Source: Candidatus Sumerlaeota bacterium
GTDB lineage: Bacteria > Bacillota > SLNR01
Assembly (NCBI GenBank): GCA_040766585.1
Contig: JAXGQE010000010.1
Coordinates: 63,117 to 127,116, forward strand
Length of the DNA stretch: 64,000 nucleotides
Direction of reading: 5' to 3'
Below the pieces are notes generated by a model. It had not been told where the DNA came from. It did not search any database and saw nothing but the letters and a program-made list of their open reading frames with translations. Made by a program: the position numbers and the translations under genes. Of the stretch, positions 162 to 40,513 are shown piece after piece (position 1 is the first letter of the stretch; each line of letters begins with the position of its first letter).

Positions 162-233
162 TCCATCGAGAATGATCCGACTCCAGAATGACCCGACTGG
201 ACTGCAAGGTCCGAGTTGGCAGGGAGGTGCAAC

Positions 234-1346
234 ATGAAAAAAAACATACCGGTTACCCGCAGCTGGATGCCCCCGTTTGACGACTACTGCCGGGAGATTG
301 AAGACCTGTGGGACAGCCGCTGGCTGACCAACATGGGGGATAAACACCGGCGGCTGGAAGAGGCTTTGGCTGAGTATCTGGATGTGCCGTATGTGGCTCT
401 GTTTACCAACGGCCATTTGGCTCTGGAAACGGCGCTTCAGGCTTTGGAGCTTCAGGGGGAAGTGTTGACTACACCCTTTACCTTCGCCTCCACCACCCAC
501 GCCATTGTCCGATGCGGCCTGACTCCAGTGTTTGTGGATATTCGATCGGATGATTATACCCTGGATGCCAAAAAACTGGAAGAGTGCATTACGGACAAAA
601 CCTGCGCCATTGTGCCGGTCCATGTCTACGGACATCTCTGCAATTATGAAGCCATTGCCGATGTGGCCCATCGCTATGGACTGAAAGTGATTTACGATGC
701 CGCCCATACTTTCGGCATGAAAGTTAACGGGAAGGGCGTCGGGCAGCTGGGGGATGTGTCCATGTTCAGTTTTCATGCCACCAAGGTCTTCCACACCATC
801 GAAGGAGGCGCCCTGACCATGAAAGATCCGGATCTGTACCAGAAGGTGGTGCGGTGGCGAAACTTTGGTCTGGGGGGCCCCGAGGAAATTGTGAATCCCG
901 GCGGAAATGGCAAGATGAGTGAGTTTCAGGCCGTTATGGGGCTGTGCTTGCTGCCCCGAGTGGATGACGAGATCGCCCGGCGCAGGGCATTGGTGGATGA
1001 ATACAGAAAGCAGCTGGCATCGGTTCCCGGTGTCCAGCTGAGTCCGGATAGAACCCATGTGGATGCCAACGGGGCCTATTTTCCCATTGTGCTTCGGGAA
1101 TATCCTGTCAGCCGGGATGAGCTGGCCCATATACTGCTATCCGAGGGCATTGTCGCCCGAAAATATTTTTACCCACTGACCAGCGATGCAGTCTGGCATG
1201 GGAAGAGCCTGTTCAAGGATACACCGGTAGCCCGTTCAGTGGCGGACCGGGTGCTCTGTCTGCCTCTGTTCGGGGAGATGGACATGGAAGATGTGGAAAG
1301 GATTGTATCCATTGTTCGCACTCACGGAAGGAGGCATGATGGATGA
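234..1346 (+). CDS. DegT/DnrJ/EryC1/StrS-family PLP-dependent sugar aminotransferase (likely dTDP-4-keto-6-deoxyhexose 4-aminotransferase)
   Basis: ORF 216-1346; start moved to ATG 234 (MKKNIPV) behind AGGGAGG at 221-227. Family-typical N-terminal region and a conserved-looking SxFSFHATK lysine region; stop overlaps rfbA start (ATGA). Confidence 0.85.
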
Positions 1347-2212
1347 AAGGAATTGTGCTGGCTGGCGGACGGGGGACCCGACTGTACCCCATAACCAAGG
1401 CGGTATCCAAACAACTGCTCCCGATCTACGACAAACCATTGATCTATTATCCTCTATCTGTACTGATGTTGGCGGGGATTCGGGAGATTCTGATTATTTC
1501 GACACCGGAAGATCTGTCATCCTACCGTCGACTGCTGGGCGACGGGACTCAATTGGGACTGACTCTTTCCTATACGGTCCAGGATTCTCCCCGGGGGTTG
1601 GCCGATGCATTCATCATCGGTGAAGATTTCATCGCTGGGGATCCGGTCTGCCTGATTTTGGGGGACAATCTGTTTTACGGGCAGAATTTGACTCGGGTGC
1701 TAATGAAAGCCCAAGAAGTACTGGACGGCGCCGTCATTTTCGGGTATCCTGTAAAAGATCCTCGTTCATTCGGGGTGGTGGAATTGGATGAAGACCATCG
1801 GGTGCTTTCCATTGAAGAAAAGCCGGAGAAGCCCCGGTCTCATTACGCAGTGCCCGGGCTGTACTTTTATGATCACTGGGTGGTGGAAAGGGCCAAGTCA
1901 TTGGCTCCGTCTTCCCGAGGTGAACTGGAAATCACGGCTCTGAACAATCTGTATCTGGATGAGAAACGGCTGCAGGTGATGCTTCTGGGTCGCGGCATGG
2001 CCTGGTTGGATACCGGAACCCCGGAAGGGCTGCTGAAAGCGGCCGAGTATGTGGAGGCTATCCAGTCCCGGCAGGGTTTCTATATCTCCTGTCTGGAAGA
2101 AATCGCCTGGCGCCGCGGCTTCATTGACAAGCAGCAGCTGCAGGCCATTGGAGAAAGTTTGGAAATGACGGATTACGGGCAGTATCTGCTGTCTTTGGTG
2201 AATGAACCGTAA
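1343..2212 (+). CDS. rfbA: glucose-1-phosphate thymidylyltransferase
   Basis: N-terminus [32 protein letters not shown] is the RmlA signature; RBS GGAAGGAGG 8 nt upstream; 289 aa. Confidence 0.92.
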
Positions 2213-2223
2213 GGAAAGGATGA

Positions 2224-3291
2224 ATGGCACGCATGAAAAAAGTACTGGTGACCGGCGGAGCCGGTTTCATCGGAAGCAATTTTATTCATTATTGTCTAGA
2301 CCGGCGTCCGGATCTTTCCATCATCAATCTGGATGCCCTAACCTATGCGGGAAATATGGAAAATCTGTCACTGTGCAGCTGCGACCGCCGCTACCGGTTT
2401 ATTCACGGAGACATTCGGGATCGAGAATTGGTGCAGTCGGTTTTTGCGGAATACGACCCGGATGCGGTGATCCATTTTGCGGCGGAGACCCATGTGGACC
2501 GCAGCATCGAGGATCCGGATGTATTTGTCACCACCAATGTGCTGGGGACCCAGATCCTTCTGGATGCAGCCAAGACAGCCTGGAAGAAACACCCCAAAGA
2601 TCACCGCTGCCGCCAGTATCGGAAAGGGGTGCGCTTTATCCACATCTCTACGGATGAGGTCTATGGATCCCTGGACGGGGAGGGGACATTTTCCGAGGAG
2701 TCGCCGCTTCTGCCCAACAGTCCCTACGCGGCATCCAAAGCCGGCGCCGATCTTTTGGTCCGGTCCTATTTCCGTACCTTTGGATTTCCAGCTGTCATTA
2801 CCCGCTGCAGCAACAATTATGGACCGTACCAGTTCCCGGAAAAACTGATCCCCCTGATGGTACGCAATGCCCAGCAGGATCTACCGCTTCCTGTGTACGG
2901 AGACGGGATGCAGGTACGGGACTGGCTCCATGTCAGCGACCACTGTGAGGCGGTGATGGCTGTCTGGGAGAACGGGCGGCTGGGTGAAGTATACAACATC
3001 GGCGGCGGTTTCGAGAAAACCAACCTGGAAATCGTGCAGATCATTTTGGATACTCTGGGAAAACCGGCATCGCTGATCCGCCACATTGCGGACCGGCCGG
3101 GCCACGACCGGCGCTATGCCATGGATTATGGGAAAATATCCAAAGAACTGGGCTGGCAGCCCGCCCACACTGTAGAAGACGGACTCAAGGAGACGGTCCT
3201 CTGGTATGTGGACAATCCCGACTGGCTGGAGCGGGTGGTTTCCGGACAGTACCGCAGCTACTACGCTCGGATGTACCGGGGCATGGAATAA
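2224..3291 (+). CDS. rfbB: dTDP-glucose 4,6-dehydratase
   Basis: Rossmann motif VLVTGGAGFIGSNF, short-chain dehydratase architecture, 355 aa, immediately after rfbA. Start could be ATG 2224 or 2233. Confidence 0.92.
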   Translation: MARMKKVLVTGGAGFIGSNFIHYCLDRRPDLSIINLDALTYAGNMENLSLCSCDRRYRFIHGDIRDRELVQSVFAEYDPDAVIHFAAETHVDRSIEDPDVFVTTNVLGTQILLDAAKTAWKKHPKDHRCRQYRKGVRFIHISTDEVYGSLDGEGTFSEESPLLPNSPYAASKAGADLLVRSYFRTFGFPAVITRCSNNYGPYQFPEKLIPLMVRNAQQDLPLPVYGDGMQVRDWLHVSDHCEAVMAVWENGRLGEVYNIGGGFEKTNLEIVQIILDTLGKPASLIRHIADRPGHDRRYAMDYGKISKELGWQPAHTVEDGLKETVLWYVDNPDWLERVVSGQYRSYYARMYRGME

Positions 3292-3813: not shown

Positions 3814-4026
3814 GAGAAGTAAACAGTTAGTTGAACACGAAACCGGATGGGGCCAAAAACGGCTTCACTGGTTTTTTCCTGCCCGGGAATTGACAATTTG
3901 TTGAAAGCATCCATGCCATGAACGTCGACCCCTTACAATGGATGTGTGGGCTGTCGGCCAGGGGGCAGGATTCAACGCTGATTTTGTCGAAAGAGAAGAC
4001 CATTACGAAGGAGCCGGGAGGCTGCT

Positions 4027-7000
4027 ATGAATAAATATTCCGATGAGTCGAATTGGGATCATTTGAATAGGGAACCGGAACAGAAACTGGTTCTTCCGGT
4101 CACAGAAGACGGTCTGATGCTGCGGGTCTCGCCGCAGGCGGCAGAGTGTCTGCATTTGAATGTGGCCCCGGGAGAGCTGTTTTCATTTTTTGATCTGTTG
4201 ACTCCTCAGGAGGCGGAAAAATGCCGCTGGCTGATGGATCAGGTGCGCCGGATCCGCCAGGCCGTGCGGACCGACTGCCGCCTGCAACTGGGCCATGGGT
4301 ATCAGCAGGTAAAAATGGTCATTGCCCCGGATGATGCCGGACTGGGGCTGGAACTTCGTCTCTTTTTGCCGGCCCAAACCATCCATGAGGCGGAAACGGA
4401 TGATGACTGCTGCGAGGCTGCGGCCATGCTGGAGTCGCAGCGGATGCTGGCAGATGCCGCCTTTGAAGGGCTGATGCTGGTTTGGGGAACCGAAACCTAC
4501 TGGACCATTACCAGCGCCAACCCGGCAGCCTGCCGATTGACCGGGTACACCGAAGAGGAACTGAGCCGGATGAATCCGGAATCTTTGGTATCGCCGGAAT
4601 ACCGGGGACGCATCCGGCAGATCCTGAAAAGAAAGCCTCTGGATCCAGAGCATTCCTGCGAACTGCAGCTGGTGACCCGCACCGGGGATCGTCTGTGGGT
4701 GGAAATCCGGGGAGCCGATTTAGAAACCCAGACGGGATCGTATCGAGTTTGTGCCTTCCGCGATATATCGGCTCTGGTGGAAAGTCGTGAAAAACTGCAG
4801 GTGAGGGAGAAAGAATTCCGGGCTTTGGCGGAGCATTCTCCGGACATCATTGTGAGATACGACCGGAATTACCAGAGAATATATGTCAATCCTGCGTTTG
4901 AACACCAATTCGGCCAATCGGCCGAGGAAGTTTTGGGTAAAAGCGTGAAGGAAACCGGGGTTCTTTCCCGGCAGACAGACCGATTCGTCGCGCTGCTGGA
5001 TGAGGTCTTTGCCAGCGGTGAGCCGCGGGAATGGGTCTTTGGGGCAGAGCCGGGTGAGCCGGTGCAGGGATATTTCCATACCCGCCTGGTACCGGAAACG
5101 GATGCCGATGGGCAGATTGGATCGATACTTGGCGTGTCTCGTGAGATTACTGAACAAAAAAACACGGAAAAGGCTCTTCGGGAACAAAAAGAACAGTATC
5201 ATCGATTTATGGACAATTTCCACGGAATTGCTTTTATGGGAGACGGAGGGTTTAAACCCCTGTTCATATCCGGTGCGGTGGAAGCCATAACCGGTTACTC
5301 GGATGAAGATTTGCTGTCGGGGCGGCTGACCTGGGAAGATCTGATCCATCCGGATGATTTTCCGGATCTGCTAGAAGCCATTGCCAACGACCGATTGGAT
5401 CAGAACATGCATACCCACCGCTACCGGATGATCCGCAAAGACGGGAAAGTCCGCTGGGTGGAACAGCACATTCGATATTTTCCCGGGCAGGACGGTGATT
5501 CCATGCGAACCCACGGCACCTTGTACGACATTACCGAACGGGTGACCATGGAAAATGCCCTGGAAGTCAGTGAAGCCCGCTACCGGATGCTTCTGGAGAA
5601 CATTTCGGATGTGGTGTATGTTCTGGATAAGCAAGGAAGGATCATCTACATCAGTCCATCGGTGGAAGGGCTCTGCGGCTATGCACCGGATGAGATGGTG
5701 GGGACATTGGTTTTGGATTGGATCTGGCCGGATGATCGAGAAATGGCCCGAAAGAATATGGAACGCAAATTCAACAGGGATATGGTCACCAGCGAACACC
5801 GGATTCGCACCAAAGACGGCGGGTACCGCTATATCCGGGCCTCCAGCCAGCCGCTGCGGGATGAGAACCTCTACGGTCCGGGCCTTTTTGGAATCATGTC
5901 CGATATTCATCTGGAGCGGCAGGCTGCTGAAGAACTGAAAGCCAGCGAAACCCGCTTTCGGACCATTATCAACAATATTCCGGGACTCTTTTACCGGGTG
6001 GACCTGGCATCCCGCACCATTACCTACGCATCCGACAGCAGCGAATCTCTGCTGGGCCTGGAGGCGAAAGATCTGGTGGGAAGGTCATTGGATGAATTTT
6101 CCAATGAACTGGTGCATCCGTCGTTCCATGGTGCTTTGACGGATGTTTTCCAAAAAGCGGTGGAGTCTGTGGGTCCGTACGAAATCGATTGCCGGCTGCA
6201 GCCGCAGAAGGGCCGACCCCTGTGGGTCAATATCCAGGGACAGGCATATCGGGAAGACGGAGTTCCTCTCTACATGGACAGCATCATGAGCGACATTACC
6301 CACCATAAGATGCTGGAAGAAGAACTGCGGAGCCGGGAAGAAGAGTTTCGCTCTTTGGCGGACAATGTCCCGGGAGCGGTCTACAAAATGGATCCGCAGA
6401 CCAATGAATTTGTGTATCTCAGCGACGAATTTGAAACCATTACCGGCTATGCTCCCCCGTTGTTTCTGGGGGATAACCGCCGTACCTATGAAGAAATTAT
6501 TTACGAAAAGGATCGGGAAAAGACGATCGCCAGTTATGATCAGGCCATATCGGAGGAACGGGTATTCAGCAGTGAGTACCGGATTGTTCGGGCGGATGGT
6601 TCACTGCGCTGGGTTCAGGGCCGGGCACAGGGCCGTTTTCAAGATGGCCAATTGCAGTGGGTAGTGGGAATTATCACCGATATCCAAGAACGCAAAGAAG
6701 CAGAAGCCCAGGTGGAATATCTTACGTTCCATGACCGGATGACGGGACTGTACAACCGGAACTTCTTCGATGTGGAACTGAAACGTCTGGATGTGGAGCG
6801 GATGCTGCCCTTAAGCATCATTATTGGAGATGTCAACGGCCTGAAGCTGGTGAATGACTCTCTGGGCCATCACAATGGAGATGAAATGCTGATTCTGGTG
6901 GCCCGTACCATCGCCGACGCCTGCCGGCAGGAAGATATCCTCTGCCGTTGGGGTGGAGACGAATTTGCCATTTTACTGCCGGAGACCTGGCTGCGGGATG

Positions 7001-7743
7001 CCATGGTGATCGTGGATCGAATCAATGAGCGGTGTGCGGAGATTAAAGATTTTCCAGTGCCGGTCAGTGTATCTTTGGGGGCCGCCTCCAAAACCGAACC
7101 GGAACAGCTTATGAATGAAGTGATTGATGAAGCAGAAGCCATGATGTACCGGACCAAATACACCGAAGGCAAGGATTTTCATGCCCGGGTGGTATATGCC
7201 CTGCAAAAGCATTTGCAGCAGCGGTCCGATGAAACACCGGAGCACTCCTTGCGGTTAAAGAGTTACTGCCAGAAACTGGGGACTCATCTGAAACTGAGTC
7301 CGGAAGAGATGCGTCGATTGGATTTGATCTGCGATCTCCACGATGTGGGCAAACTGGTGGTACCGGAAGAGATTCTGATTCGACCGGGTCCCCTGACTTC
7401 TGAAGAACGGGATCTGGTGGAGGCTCACTGCGAGCATGGGGTCAAGATCATTCAGTCCGCCGCCAGTCTGGTGGCGGTGGCCGATGAAATCCTGGCTCAC
7501 CATGAGTGGTATGACGGCAGCGGGTATCCGCGCGGCTTGAAGGGGGAAGAGATTCCTCTGCTTTCTCGAATTTTTGCTATTGTGGACGCTTTCGATGTGA
7601 TGACTCAGGGGCGGGCATACCGCAGAGCGCTGCCTTGCACGGAAGCTTTATCGGAATTGAGAGACTGCAAGGGGATCCAATTTGATCCTGTTTTAGTGGA
7701 CGCATTCATTGCCCTCATGAAGGAGGATCCAGAACGCCAATAA
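4027..7743 (+). CDS. multi-PAS sensor protein with GGDEF (diguanylate cyclase) and HD-GYP (c-di-GMP phosphodiesterase) domains
   Basis: 1238 aa; several PAS/PAC-like repeats; RQEDILCRWGGDEF (GGDEF A-site with RxxD I-site); C-terminal LHDVGK ... HHEWYDGSGYP (HD-GYP). RBS GGGAGG 6-7 nt upstream. Confidence 0.88.
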   Translation: MNKYSDESNWDHLNREPEQKLVLPVTEDGLMLRVSPQAAECLHLNVAPGELFSFFDLLTPQEAEKCRWLMDQVRRIRQAVRTDCRLQLGHGYQQVKMVIAPDDAGLGLELRLFLPAQTIHEAETDDDCCEAAAMLESQRMLADAAFEGLMLVWGTETYWTITSANPAACRLTGYTEEELSRMNPESLVSPEYRGRIRQILKRKPLDPEHSCELQLVTRTGDRLWVEIRGADLETQTGSYRVCAFRDISALVESREKLQVREKEFRALAEHSPDIIVRYDRNYQRIYVNPAFEHQFGQSAEEVLGKSVKETGVLSRQTDRFVALLDEVFASGEPREWVFGAEPGEPVQGYFHTRLVPETDADGQIGSILGVSREITEQKNTEKALREQKEQYHRFMDNFHGIAFMGDGGFKPLFISGAVEAITGYSDEDLLSGRLTWEDLIHPDDFPDLLEAIANDRLDQNMHTHRYRMIRKDGKVRWVEQHIRYFPGQDGDSMRTHGTLYDITERVTMENALEVSEARYRMLLENISDVVYVLDKQGRIIYISPSVEGLCGYAPDEMVGTLVLDWIWPDDREMARKNMERKFNRDMVTSEHRIRTKDGGYRYIRASSQPLRDENLYGPGLFGIMSDIHLERQAAEELKASETRFRTIINNIPGLFYRVDLASRTITYASDSSESLLGLEAKDLVGRSLDEFSNELVHPSFHGALTDVFQKAVESVGPYEIDCRLQPQKGRPLWVNIQGQAYREDGVPLYMDSIMSDITHHKMLEEELRSREEEFRSLADNVPGAVYKMDPQTNEFVYLSDEFETITGYAPPLFLGDNRRTYEEIIYEKDREKTIASYDQAISEERVFSSEYRIVRADGSLRWVQGRAQGRFQDGQLQWVVGIITDIQERKEAEAQVEYLTFHDRMTGLYNRNFFDVELKRLDVERMLPLSIIIGDVNGLKLVNDSLGHHNGDEMLILVARTIADACRQEDILCRWGGDEFAILLPETWLRDAMVIVDRINERCAEIKDFPVPVSVSLGAASKTEPEQLMNEVIDEAEAMMYRTKYTEGKDFHARVVYALQKHLQQRSDETPEHSLRLKSYCQKLGTHLKLSPEEMRRLDLICDLHDVGKLVVPEEILIRPGPLTSEERDLVEAHCEHGVKIIQSAASLVAVADEILAHHEWYDGSGYPRGLKGEEIPLLSRIFAIVDAFDVMTQGRAYRRALPCTEALSELRDCKGIQFDPVLVDAFIALMKEDPERQ

Positions 7744-7861
7744 AGGCACATACATGGACGATGATTCGAAAAACGGCGAATGCCGTTTTTTTCTTGGGCA
7801 GGGTTTTCCGGAAAAAAAACGAATAGGTACGGACAGGGACCTGAAAGTTGAGGTGAGCAGG

Positions 7862-8161
7862 ATGACCCGGTACAACACGTTTCTGCTCTATGCATTTGTC
7901 ATTCTTGTACTGGCCCGATTGATCCTGACGTATGCCCTGGTATTCTCTCGTTCCAGCCAGATACAACCCTGGGCGGAACTGGACGGGCATCGCGTGCTCC
8001 GGGGAAAAGGGGTCACACTATTGGTGAATGACCGCTGGGTGATGGGAGCGGTCTACGGGCATCTGGAAACCGGCGCCATAGTCATCCGCACCGAGGATGG
8101 CGCTTTTATTGAGATTCAGCCGGATGATATTCAGACAACGCGTATTTACGATCTGTCGTGA
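7862..8161 (+). CDS. hypothetical small membrane protein
   Basis: Taken from ORF 7754-8161 with start at ATG 7862 (MTRYNTF...) behind GAGGTGA; N-terminal hydrophobic helix; ends 21 nt before the CapA-like gene. Confidence 0.45.
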   Translation: MTRYNTFLLYAFVILVLARLILTYALVFSRSSQIQPWAELDGHRVLRGKGVTLLVNDRWVMGAVYGHLETGAIVIRTEDGAFIEIQPDDIQTTRIYDLS

Positions 8162-8181
8162 CGACAGAAGGAGGAATAGGG

Positions 8182-9360
8182 ATGAAGGTGGGTAAATGGT
8201 TGACGGTTCTGGCGCTCAGCGCGGCATTGGTAGTGGGGGCAGCCTCTGTGGTGCAGACGCCCACGGACCTTCCGGCCGATGACATGGAACCACGGCCGCC
8301 GGCGGTGCGGCAGGCTCGTCTGGCATCGGTGGGGGATATTATGATGCACAACACCCAGCTCACCGACGGCTACTCGGAGGGCGGGTACAACTTCGATCAT
8401 TTCTTCGCGGATATTTCACCCTACTGGAGCGACTGCGACCTGGTGGTGGGCAATCTGGAAACCACCATGGCCGGAAGCGATCGGGGATACACCGGATACC
8501 CGCGTTTCAACAGCCCGGATGAGCTGGCCGATGCCATACGAAAAGCCGGTTTTGACCTGGTCAGCACCGCCAACAACCATGCCATGGATAAAGGCGAGTC
8601 TGGGGTTCGAAGAACTCTGGATATGCTGGACAGCCAGAATATCCTGAACACCGGAACCGCGCGATCGCCAGAGGAGCGTAGCCAGTGGCCCATGGTGGAT
8701 GTCAACGGGATCCAAATGGCTTTTCTGGCCTACACATACAGCACCAACGGAATCCCTGTTCCGTCGGGAAAGGAGTACCTGGTCAACATGATTGATGAAA
8801 AGCAGATGGCCGAGGACATCGCCCGGGCCCGGGAACAGGGAGCGGATCTGGTGGTGGTATCGCCCCACTACGGCGCGGAATACCGCTGGTCGCCCAACGA
8901 CTACCAGCTGGAAACCGTGGATGCGCTGGTGAGGGCAGGAGCTGATTTGATTCTGGGGAGCCATCCTCATGTGCTTCAGCCGTTTGAAATGGTGTCGGTG
9001 ACCTTAGACGACGGAAGCGTCCGCCAGGCCGGGGTGCTGTACTCTCAGGGGAATTTCATTTCTGCCCAAAAAGGGCTGGACCGGGAAACGGCTGCCGTGT
9101 TCTTTATTGACATTGAAAAGGACCTGTGGGAAGGGACCACCCGGGTTACCGGGATCGAAGCCCTGCCCATTTATACCCATAAATACAGAGAGGGAGGAAA
9201 ACTGCGCTACCGGGTGGTGGCTGTGGAGCCATCCATTCAGCGCTATGAAAACGGCGATGCGGGCCGCTTTACCTCCCAGGACATTTCAATTCTTCGTTCG
9301 GCCTGGGATCATGCGGTGAACATTCTGGGGGACGATCGTCTGGTCAGAATACAACCGTAG
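8182..9360 (+). CDS. CapA/PGA_cap-family metallophosphatase-like protein (secreted or membrane-anchored)
   Basis: ORF 8158-9360, start at ATG 8182 behind GGAGGA; signal/TM segment LTVLALSAALVVGAAS; motifs VGDIMMH, DLVVGNLET, STANNHAMD typical of the CapA family. Confidence 0.8.
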   Translation: MKVGKWLTVLALSAALVVGAASVVQTPTDLPADDMEPRPPAVRQARLASVGDIMMHNTQLTDGYSEGGYNFDHFFADISPYWSDCDLVVGNLETTMAGSDRGYTGYPRFNSPDELADAIRKAGFDLVSTANNHAMDKGESGVRRTLDMLDSQNILNTGTARSPEERSQWPMVDVNGIQMAFLAYTYSTNGIPVPSGKEYLVNMIDEKQMAEDIARAREQGADLVVVSPHYGAEYRWSPNDYQLETVDALVRAGADLILGSHPHVLQPFEMVSVTLDDGSVRQAGVLYSQGNFISAQKGLDRETAAVFFIDIEKDLWEGTTRVTGIEALPIYTHKYREGGKLRYRVVAVEPSIQRYENGDAGRFTSQDISILRSAWDHAVNILGDDRLVRIQP

Positions 9361-9400: not shown

Positions 9401-9988
9401 ATGATACCTGAAATTGTGGACATGATTCAAAAATCAGCAGCCATTGCCGTCGGTCTGGCGCTGCTGAATGTGGTGACCGCCTTTTTGATGAGGATGTATC
9501 TGACCTGGGCAGTGATTCGGAAAAAGCAGGTGGACCTGCATGTCAGACCCACCCAGAAGCAGTGGGTGAACTATGTGGCTCCTCTTCAGGATGTGGAATT
9601 CAAAGGACTTGTGGTCATGATCGTGGTGATTGTCCTGATCGCATACTTTATTAAGCAAATTCCAGCCGCCTCCGGGCTGATTGTGATTCTGGTGGGGCTG
9701 TCCTTTTTCACGTTTACACTGGGGCTGGCCCGTCCCTCGTATTATCTGACGCCCGAGGGTCTGGTGGTGTTAAACTGGTACCCGCCCTATATGAATCGGA
9801 ATATGGGGTTTTTCCGCTGGAGCCTTTTTGAGAAGTATGCCGCCACCGATGACGGTGTTGTGGTAGGCAGCCCGAAGCGAATCATTCCCATCATCTGCGA
9901 ACAGAAGGATCTGGATGCAGTACGCCGCTATGTGCGGCGGATGATGAACCGCCTGAGGGCAGAGGCCGGTCTGGAAACACTGGATTAA
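9401..9988 (+). CDS. hypothetical integral membrane protein
   Basis: 195 aa with several hydrophobic helices; RBS AGGAGGGGA upstream; followed by a bidirectional terminator. Confidence 0.6.
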   Translation: MIPEIVDMIQKSAAIAVGLALLNVVTAFLMRMYLTWAVIRKKQVDLHVRPTQKQWVNYVAPLQDVEFKGLVVMIVVIVLIAYFIKQIPAASGLIVILVGLSFFTFTLGLARPSYYLTPEGLVVLNWYPPYMNRNMGFFRWSLFEKYAATDDGVVVGSPKRIIPIICEQKDLDAVRRYVRRMMNRLRAEAGLETLD

Positions 9989-38671: not shown

Positions 38672-40513
38672 ATGATGAAAGGATACATGGGAAAAATTCT
38701 CCATGTGGATTTGACCACTGAAACAATCCATACAGATTTTTATGATGAAGCCCACTTACGCAAATACATCGGCGGCAGCGGGCTGGGGGCCCGTATTCTC
38801 TATGACGAAACGGATGAATCCACCGATCCGCTGGGGCCTGATAATGTGCTGATCTTTATGACCGGTCCTCTCGTCGGGACAAAAATTCCTATGACCGGAC
38901 GGCATGCCGTGGTGGCAAAATCACCATTGACAGGCATTTGGGGTGAATCCGATTCGGGGGGGCACTGGGGATACATGCTCAAACGAGCTGGATTCGACGG
39001 CATAGTGTTTCGAGGTGCAGCGTCGAAACCGGTATATTTGTGGATTCACGAAGGAGAAGTGGAAATTCGCCCAGCCGATTCGATTTGGGGGCAGGACTCA
39101 TTTGTCACCGAAGAGATGATTCAAAAAGAAACCCATTCAAAAGCCGCCGTTGCCTGCATTGGCCCGGCTGGTGAGAATCTGGTCCGCATGGCTGCCATTA
39201 TGAATGACGGGAAAGACAGTCGTGCGGCAGGACGCTGCGGATTGGGCGCTGTCATGGGTTCCAAAATGCTTAAAGCAGTGGCTGTGTTTGGCGCAGAAGA
39301 GACACCGGTGGCAGACCCAGAAAAACTGGCTCAGATGGGGCGTACCATCGCCAAGCAAATAGCGGAGCGGACAAAAAGCTTCAGTGCTTTCGGAACATCC
39401 GGTGGACTGCAGACGGCAGAAAAAGTGGGCGATTTACCCATTCAGAACTGGCGAACCGGAACCTGGGAAAGCGGTGCTGCGAAAATATCAGGCCAAGCTA
39501 TGGCCGATTCCATATTGACCGGTAAATTTTTCTGTCAGGGTTGTGTAATTGGATGCGGACGAGTGGTTAAGCAGTATTATCAACCGTTTGCCGGCCTTGC
39601 CGGTGGCGGACCGGAATATGAAACGTTGGGTATGATTGGCAGCAACGCGCTGGTGGACGACCTGGAGACCATTGCTCGGGCCAATGAGTTGTGCAACCGC
39701 TACGGTGTTGATACTATTTCATGCGGTTCTGCAGCTGCCTTTGCTATAGAATGCTTCGAGCGCGGGTTAATCACCAAAGATGATACGAATGGCCTGGAAT
39801 TGGCCTGGGGTGATGGGAAAACACTGTTGGCACTCATTGAGATGATTGTTAAAAAGGAAGGGATCGGCGAGATTCTCAGTCAGGGAACTCGACGGGCAGC
39901 CGAAGCAATCGGAGGCATAGCATCCGAATTTGCGATTCATGTCAAAGGACTGGAACTTCCGGCTCATGACCCACGCGCCTACATCAGTCTGGGTGTAGGG
40001 TATGCAACCTCCAATCGGGGGGCATGCCATCTGCAGGGCTACAGCTATGCATTCGAACGAGGATTAACCTCCCCGGATATGGGATTTCCTGAGGTTTTGG
40101 ATCGTTTCTCTATGGACCGGAAAGGAGAACTGGCCGCAAAAACCCAGAATCTGATGAGCATGTTTGATTCCCTGAAAGTATGCAAGTTTATCCTCAGCGG
40201 GGGCGTGGATGTGCATAATCTGGTGGAATGGCTCAATGCTTCCACCGGCTGGGATATGACCGATGAGGAGTTTATGCGGACCGGAGAACGTTTATATAAT
40301 CTGAAACGAATGTACAATGTCCGCTGCGGGATCAGTCGAAAAGACGATGTCTTGCCCATGCGTATTCTGACGCAGCCCCGACGGGAAGGCGGTGCCGGAT
40401 ACAATCTGCCGCCTCTGGGGCCGATGCTGCACGAATACTATGCAATACGGGGTTGGTCCGATGAAGGGATTCCCCGTCCAGAAAAACTCAGCGAGCTGGA
40501 ATTACACATCTAA
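38672..40513 (+). CDS. aldehyde:ferredoxin oxidoreductase (tungsten/molybdopterin AOR family)
   Basis: 613 aa; N-terminal AOR domain (KILHVDLTT...YIGGSGLGARIL) and AOR-family length and architecture. Confidence 0.9.
   Translation: MMKGYMGKILHVDLTTETIHTDFYDEAHLRKYIGGSGLGARILYDETDESTDPLGPDNVLIFMTGPLVGTKIPMTGRHAVVAKSPLTGIWGESDSGGHWGYMLKRAGFDGIVFRGAASKPVYLWIHEGEVEIRPADSIWGQDSFVTEEMIQKETHSKAAVACIGPAGENLVRMAAIMNDGKDSRAAGRCGLGAVMGSKMLKAVAVFGAEETPVADPEKLAQMGRTIAKQIAERTKSFSAFGTSGGLQTAEKVGDLPIQNWRTGTWESGAAKISGQAMADSILTGKFFCQGCVIGCGRVVKQYYQPFAGLAGGGPEYETLGMIGSNALVDDLETIARANELCNRYGVDTISCGSAAAFAIECFERGLITKDDTNGLELAWGDGKTLLALIEMIVKKEGIGEILSQGTRRAAEAIGGIASEFAIHVKGLELPAHDPRAYISLGVGYATSNRGACHLQGYSYAFERGLTSPDMGFPEVLDRFSMDRKGELAAKTQNLMSMFDSLKVCKFILSGGVDVHNLVEWLNASTGWDMTDEEFMRTGERLYNLKRMYNVRCGISRKDDVLPMRILTQPRREGGAGYNLPPLGPMLHEYYAIRGWSDEGIPRPEKLSELELHI

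Follow-up and report, generated by a model that had tools for sequence, protein, structure and literature searches.

A seven-PAS protein with predicted diguanylate cyclase and HD-GYP phosphodiesterase sites in a Candidatus Sumerlaeota bacterium

In a 64,000-nucleotide stretch of DNA from a Candidatus Sumerlaeota bacterium (GenBank assembly GCA_040766585.1, contig JAXGQE010000010.1, positions 63,117 to 127,116; hereafter the window), one open reading frame (ORF) encodes a sensor protein of 1238 residues in which seven PAS domains precede a GGDEF domain and an HD-GYP domain. Both output folds are intact, as are the Mg and guanine ligands of the cyclase, its inhibitory site (I-site) and the eight metal ligands of the HD-GYP domain. 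Judged from these residues, the protein is probably a PAS-regulated enzyme of cyclic di-GMP (c-di-GMP) turnover with two competent sites, and an ordinary member of the PAS-GGDEF-HD-GYP class. A switch between synthesis and hydrolysis, proposed for this protein in an earlier note made from the letters of the window and a list of its ORFs, is plausible, and the same inference has already been drawn in the literature for the whole class of hybrids.

RESULTS

Domain content of the sensor protein

The sensor gene occupies 4027..7743 (+), with an ATG start and a TAA stop, in agreement with the earlier note, and an identical 1238-residue protein is present in NCBI. A Shine-Dalgarno-like GGGAGG (4016..4021, +) can be read from the sequence 5 nt 5′ of the ATG. 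The maximum Kyte-Doolittle value along the protein is 1.4 (19-residue window), and no transmembrane segment is found. Because it contains no hydrophobic segment, the protein is predicted to be soluble and cytoplasmic.

Domains were called by comparing Pfam-A and NCBIfam profile scores with curated cut-offs. Four Pfam-A PAS families match five to six stretches each (PAS_3, 264.7 bits; PAS, 189.7; PAS_9, 184.9; PAS_4, 150.6), and TIGR00229 (sensory_box) matches six stretches with 370 bits. The GGDEF diguanylate-cyclase domain (6727..7164, +; residues 901-1046) scores 111.5 bits with PF00990 (cut-off 23.8) and 113.1 bits with TIGR00254 (cut-off 37.4), while the HD-GYP phosphodiesterase domain (7213..7692, +; residues 1063-1222) scores 125 bits with HD_5 (PF13487; cut-off 27.2). 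By this measure a chance origin of the domain features is excluded, since the scores far exceed the cut-offs. The earlier note had suggested domain annotation as a check on its assignments, and both output domains come out of it well above threshold. The strings quoted in that note also lie within these domains: RQEDILCRWGGDEF at residues 967-980, LHDVGK at 1104-1109 and HHEWYDGSGYP at 1158-1168.

Key residues of both active sites

Searches of the PDB with phmmer matched the GGDEF domain to the enzyme TmDGC of T. maritima (4urs, E = 3.8e-21) and to PleD (1.9e-16). We mapped its residues by HMMER alignment to PleD (1w25), taking their roles from PMC12943098. The active-site (A-site) GGDEF motif (6952..6966, +; residues 976-980) corresponds to PleD 368-372. 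In this alignment the Mg ligands are D935 (PleD D327) and D978 (E370), the guanine-binding pair is N943 (N335) and D952 (D344), and the transition-state residues are K940 (K332) and R974 (R366). K1044 was equated with PleD K442 by the match of AEAMMYRTK with ADEGVYQAK, together with the alignment to the T. maritima enzyme. The I-site RxxD, R967-Q-E-D970 (6925..6936, +), corresponds to PleD R359/D362; five residues separate it from GGDEF, a spacing identical to that of PleD (R359xxD362...G368), and R998 is the equivalent of R390, the remaining I-site residue. The domain thus shares with PleD, WspR and TmDGC the A-site, the Mg ligands, the N/D pair, the equivalents of K332, R366 and K442, and the whole I-site, and the intact A-site and canonically spaced RxxD described in the earlier note both hold up.

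For the HD-GYP domain, the PDB search returned V-cGAP3 (5z7c, 4.5e-37), the Persephonella marina GAF-HD-GYP protein PmGH (4mcw, 1.3e-33) and PA4781 (4r8z, 1.2e-25). Residues were mapped by HMMER alignment to PmGH (4mcw; also solved as 4mdz), with the numbering checked via H221/D222 and roles taken from PMC4159591. Eight metal ligands, E1069, H1073, H1105, D1106, H1134, H1158, H1159 and D1187, correspond to PmGH E185, H189, H221, D222, H250, H276, H277 and D305, the ligands of its tri-iron centre. The first two lie in E1069-T-P-E-H1073 (7231..7245, +), and the HD motif, H1105 and D1106 (7339..7344, +), is followed by K1109, the equivalent of PmGH K225. HHEWYDGSGYP (7498..7530, +) supplies the HH pair and, at residues 1166-1168, the GYP. 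D1190 corresponds to the structural residue D308 and R1196 to R314, while R1199 replaces K317. A stalk helix precedes the domain, as in PmGH, but the partner to which it is joined differs: GAF in PmGH, and here a GGDEF domain that continues straight into the stalk.

A carboxylate at the PmGH E185 position is tied to a trinuclear-metal (iron) centre (Bellini 2014, PMC4159591). By its Glu at this position, the domain is assigned to the E185 (trinuclear-metal) subfamily. The C-terminal HD-GYP assignment of the earlier note is backed by the HD_5 score and by both motifs, and the two checks it proposed, of the HD-GYP metal ligands and of degeneracy on closer alignment, find eight of the eight PmGH ligands kept and neither output domain degenerate at the level of residues aligned to PleD and PmGH.

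Distribution and conservation of the output cassette

We searched 1.84 billion representatives of 50%-identity clusters exhaustively (phmmer) with the 358-residue cassette that holds both output domains, and 17,477 proteins match it at E ≤ 1e-30. Conservation was counted over 150 listed representatives of these 17,477 (E ≤ 1e-100), and all counts below refer to that set. Every one of the 150 contains the whole cassette in one stretch (~1-350 of 358; 37-63% identity), and in every one it is C-terminal, in proteins of 392-1737 residues. The few named members are mostly Bacillota, including Syntrophomonas wolfei and Clostridiaceae. Routine database labels for these proteins are 'diguanylate cyclase', 'PAS domain S-box protein' and 'HD domain-containing phosphohydrolase'.

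The mapped residues are retained to a striking degree. On the cyclase side (PleD numbering), N335 and R366 are present in all 150 proteins, D327, K332 and D344 in 149 each, and K442 in 148; the G, G, D and E of the GGDEF motif are kept in 149-150 each and the F in 147. The I-site is close behind, with R359 and D362 in 145 each and R390 in 137. On the HD-GYP side (PmGH numbering), E185 and H250 are invariant, H189 is found in 149, the HD pair in 149 and 150, the HH pair in 144 and 149, GYP in 149-150, D305 in 147 and K225 in 143. All mapped key residues are kept in 131-150 of the 150, with the exception of the K317 position (K in 89, R in 43). Certain departures from the reference enzymes are themselves conserved. 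Asn at the position of PleD D329 is found in 148 of the proteins, and the resulting D-x-N form of the first motif is characteristic of the cassette; the position of PmGH D183 is S or T in 126, and the residue five positions beyond K442 is K or R in 118. The segment from M1040 to H1073, which joins the two domains, measures exactly 34 residues in all 150, with no indels. This near-invariance shows that purifying selection acts on the two active sites and the I-site, and that it also holds the connecting helix to its length.

When species-representative genomes were scanned, the domain pair turned up in Actinomycetota, Clostridium peptidivorans, Aminivibrio, Vallitaleaceae and Catellatospora as well. 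In two metagenome-assembled genomes (MAGs) of Nitrospirae (L023, 1943-4531; L028, 4837-7440), the domains occur in reverse order, HD-GYP and then GGDEF. Given this opposite order, the pairing has come about, or been reshuffled, on more than one occasion.

A continuous helix joins the two domains

An AlphaFold2 model of the cassette (residues 881-1238), built from a nine-sequence alignment, has a mean predicted local distance difference test (pLDDT) score of 89.7 and a predicted template-modelling (TM) score of 0.80. In this model, the last helix of the GGDEF domain, which carries AEAMMYRTK, and the stalk helix of the HD-GYP domain form a single continuous helix (7111..7224, +; residues 1029-1066, model residues 149-186; mean pLDDT 89.7), with no GRN turn between them. 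Foldseek searches of the PDB with the model returned HD-GYP structures (4mcw, 4r8z and 9rbz; E ~1e-11, probability 1.00) and GGDEF structures (SiaD, DgcR, WspR, IsPadC and PleD). Every match spans half of the model, with query-normalised TM-scores of at most 0.47, and no solved structure containing both GGDEF and HD-GYP was found in this search.

Are both sites competent?

Several observations weigh against the view that both sites are competent. Compared with PleD, WspR and TmDGC, the GGDEF domain has Asn (N937) in place of PleD D329, its β4-β5 hairpin is shortened, and the K-x-x-G-R-N end and β7 are replaced by the helix that runs into the HD-GYP domain. PleD R446 also lacks an exact equivalent, the sole candidate being K1049, at +5 from the K442 position. 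In the HD-GYP domain, Ser (S1067) takes the place of D183, a residue essential in PmGH, with D1068 adjoining. Moreover, in GGDEF-EAL hybrids one activity is generally dominant (PMC6205966), so that genuine bifunctionality is not what one would expect by default. In the searchable full-text literature we found surveys, passing mentions and work on the PAS/HD-GYP receptor DvhD, and no biochemical study of any GGDEF-HD-GYP protein. Two of the substitutions have counterparts in active enzymes. T. maritima DGC (4urs) is active with Ala at the D329 position, and on this comparison the change to Asn is not disabling; active V-cGAP3 likewise has Ser at the position of PmGH D183.

The altered end of the GGDEF domain, its short hairpin and N937 would all suit a protein that is effectively a phosphodiesterase only. 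In such a protein the GGDEF domain would serve as a nucleotide sensor that takes up GTP (A-site), c-di-GMP (I-site) or both and regulates the HD-GYP domain through the rigid helix. An indel-free connecting helix fits such allosteric transmission, as does the tendency of hybrids to have one dominant activity. There is also a precedent, as far as it is described in PMC12943098, in the degenerate, GTP-sensing GGDEF domain of Caulobacter CC3396/PdeA, which controls an EAL domain. However, the A-sites of CC3396-type sensors are degenerate, whereas here the GGDEF motif, the Mg ligands, K332, N335, D344 and R366 are individually retained by 147-150 relatives out of 150. If the domain were not catalytic, such conservation would be difficult to account for; moreover, D329 is also missing from the active enzyme of T. 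maritima. We consider a phosphodiesterase-only protein unlikely.

The converse, an effective cyclase whose HD-GYP domain is a non-catalytic c-di-GMP receptor or interaction module, has models in DvhD and in the GYP contacts that RpfG makes with GGDEF proteins. DvhD, a D. vulgaris PAS/HD-GYP receptor (9rbz/9rc0), has the PAS-stalk-HD-GYP dimer arrangement that is predicted for the protein studied here; its stalk helix is the moving element, and degenerate receptors of its kind bind c-di-GMP tightly (PMC13090378). DvhD (9rbz) is also among both the sequence and the fold matches, and PmGH D183 is not conserved here. In contrast, DvhD has no GGDEF domain and is catalytically dead, with SQ for HD and MN for HH (PMC13090378), whereas the sensor protein and its relatives keep the eight metal ligands, K225 and D308. 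A cyclase-only protein is therefore very improbable, and the specific case of a DvhD-type degenerate receptor was rejected on the intact HD (1105-1106) and HH (1158-1159) pairs.

The least probable alternative is that the cassette acts on another cyclic dinucleotide, such as 3′3′-cyclic GMP-AMP (cGAMP): cGAMP-making Hypr GGDEF enzymes exist (PMC12943098) and among PDB entries it is V-cGAP3, a V. cholerae cGAMP phosphodiesterase, that matches the sequence of the HD-GYP domain best, but that enzyme has Tyr at the E185 position, where the sensor protein has Glu like PmGH, which scores nearly equally. A Hypr cGAMP synthase was rejected separately: the signature Ser at PleD D344 (PMC12943098) is absent, D952 being Asp, as in 149 of the 150 relatives.

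The PAS array

Six PAS domains lie in tandem (4429..6705, +), at residues 135-256, 257-382, 383-509, 510-636, 637-766 and 767-893. Each is ~125 residues long and has a short coiled linker at its start. A hidden Markov model (HMM) built from the protein's own PAS repeats recovers the six in strict tandem, with E = 1e-39 to 1e-52. The N-terminal 134 residues escape sequence profiles, and even with the in-house PAS HMM they reach no better than E = 0.056. We modelled residues 1-140 with AlphaFold2, using an alignment of three orthologues. The core (residues 21-110) has pLDDT values of 83-93 and the β-β-α-α-α-β-β-β order of a PAS fold, and in a Foldseek search of the PDB the top 50 matches are all PAS, with target-normalised TM-scores of up to 0.78. 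This divergent PAS-fold domain (4078..4371, +; residues 18-115), added to the six found by profiles, brings the predicted total to seven, one of which had lain beyond the reach of the methods by which Pfam, TIGR00229 and the self-built HMM recovered the 'several' repeats of the earlier note.

A search of the sensor protein for the LOV motif NC[RK]F found none. A PDB sequence search with residues 1-893 gave a single match, 3mr0, an unliganded structural-genomics PAS that pairs with PAS6. No cofactor class can be inferred for the PAS domains, and heme or FAD (flavin adenine dinucleotide) binding is not judgeable from sequence.

Genomic neighbourhood

The best genome matches to the sensor protein are Candidatus Sumerlaeota MAGs, which hold full-length orthologues of 59, 48 and 46% identity in conserved synteny. 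The conserved order runs from a surface-polysaccharide cluster through a small PF06695 membrane protein, the sensor gene and a ~99-residue single-helix ORF to a PGA_cap gene (two of three compared genomes), a 195-residue membrane ORF, an oppositely oriented DUF362/4Fe-4S gene and two M16 peptidase genes.

Upstream of the sensor gene in the window are genes for a DegT-type aminotransferase, an RmlA-like nucleotidyltransferase and an RmlB-like 4,6-dehydratase of the dTDP-sugar pathway (216-3291, +). At the equivalent position, the relative L065 carries other polysaccharide genes (glycosyltransferases/Polysacc_synt/Glyphos_transf). A consensus scan found a terminator-like hairpin and T-run (3848..3877, +) 3′ of the upstream Sm_multidrug_ex gene, which weakly suggests that the sensor gene may begin a transcription unit of its own. 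A scan for sigma-70 promoters upstream of the sensor gene found no site, a result that is uninformative for this phylum.

Directly downstream is a 135-residue ORF (7754-8161, +) that is conserved only from an internal ATG at 7862 (MTRYNTF...). Its counterparts in Sumerlaeota relatives lie at 10850-11146 in L065 and 4060-4332 in L067, and its real product is probably ~99 residues long with one hydrophobic helix. The PGA_cap gene (CapA-like poly-gamma-glutamate capsule synthesis; 8158-9360, +) is found in L067 too and is absent from the syntenic L065/L066 locus. It is followed by the gene for the 195-residue predicted membrane protein (9401-9988, +), which is well conserved and syntenic in three of three Sumerlaeota relatives, between the sensor and DUF362/4Fe-4S genes. 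Neither the 7754-8161 ORF nor the 9401-9988 ORF has a Pfam match. The position of the sensor gene beside polysaccharide genes hints at envelope or exopolysaccharide behaviour as the likely output of the sensor; this link is positional only, and the upstream cluster varies between relatives.

A six-frame motif scan of the window found no further GGDEF, HD-GYP or PilZ-like motif; besides, there is one loose EAL-like match, EVLDR, at nt 40091. No c-di-GMP riboswitch was found in the window (Rfam, gathering threshold). The only Rfam match in the window is a glmS ribozyme (RF00234; 43533-43687, +), which scores 102.8 bits over the full model, against a gathering threshold of 37.

DISCUSSION

The combination of domains described here has been surveyed before. 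Seshasayee et al. 2010 (NAR 38:5970, PMC2952852) found GGDEF in 74 of 1034 HD-GYP proteins (7%), whereas 68% of EAL proteins are hybrids. Partner domains accompany 46 of the 74 hybrids, PAS being the commonest (32), and the GGDEF site is intact in all but two; the authors concluded that nearly all hybrids probably retain both activities, whose balance is set by the partner domain (PMC2952852). Bellini et al. likewise count GGDEF among the partner domains of HD-GYP (PMC4159591), and the introduction of Al-Bassam et al. 2018 mentions GGDEF-HD-GYP tandems as a standard architecture. The earlier note had called the pairing less common than GGDEF with EAL. In relative terms this stands (7% versus 68%), but the rarity it implied is overstated, with the cassette present in all 150 of the clusters listed.

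The Sumerlaeota protein shares with those hybrids its PAS sensors, the intact A-site of its GGDEF domain and the HHExxDGxxGYP motif. It is set apart by an unusually long, seven-PAS array and by its host, and the survey was purely computational. A further comparison is with bifunctional GGDEF-EAL enzymes such as M. smegmatis MSDGC-1, A. baldaniorum CdgB and V. cholerae MbaA, which also combine synthesis and degradation domains in one chain under a sensory domain. In contrast to these, the sensor protein has HD-GYP, a metal-dependent fold unrelated to EAL, as its degradation domain, and the link is a rigid helix of invariant length.

If both sites are indeed competent, the sensor protein would be a cytoplasmic integrator of signals, probably working as a homodimer. 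A dimer is expected because two A-sites must meet in known GGDEF enzymes, and because HD-GYP domains form dimers via their stalk helices. The seven PAS domains would signal via the coiled linker into the widespread GGDEF-HD-GYP output cassette, and PAS-driven changes in dimer register would either pair the GGDEF A-sites, for synthesis, or favour the stalk-dimer state of the HD-GYP domains, for hydrolysis. The rigid shared helix would pass this motion on to the two HD-GYP domains of the dimer. As c-di-GMP bound at the I-site would stop synthesis, the protein may set the level of c-di-GMP, not merely raise or lower it. One can go further and picture the cassette as a self-contained set-point controller, in which I-site occupancy flips the dimer from cyclase- to phosphodiesterase-competent and the PAS domains shift the set-point. 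We offer this only tentatively, as a doubtful extension prompted by the invariant length of the shared helix, seen in 150 of 150 relatives, and by the almost invariant I-site.

The significance of the protein is modest: it is a tidy representative, intact throughout, of an abundant but experimentally neglected class of cyclase/HD-GYP proteins, in a poorly studied phylum. Mildly notable are its cryptic seventh PAS domain, a helical junction that is invariably 34 residues long, and its membership of a class for which no characterised or solved member was found. The 358-residue cassette (residues 881-1238) would be a reasonable target for a study of coupling or for a first two-domain structure, and Bacillota relatives would be equally suitable. 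For the organism, these data suggest that c-di-GMP signalling is used, with a complex cytoplasmic sensor that may connect to surface-polysaccharide genes.

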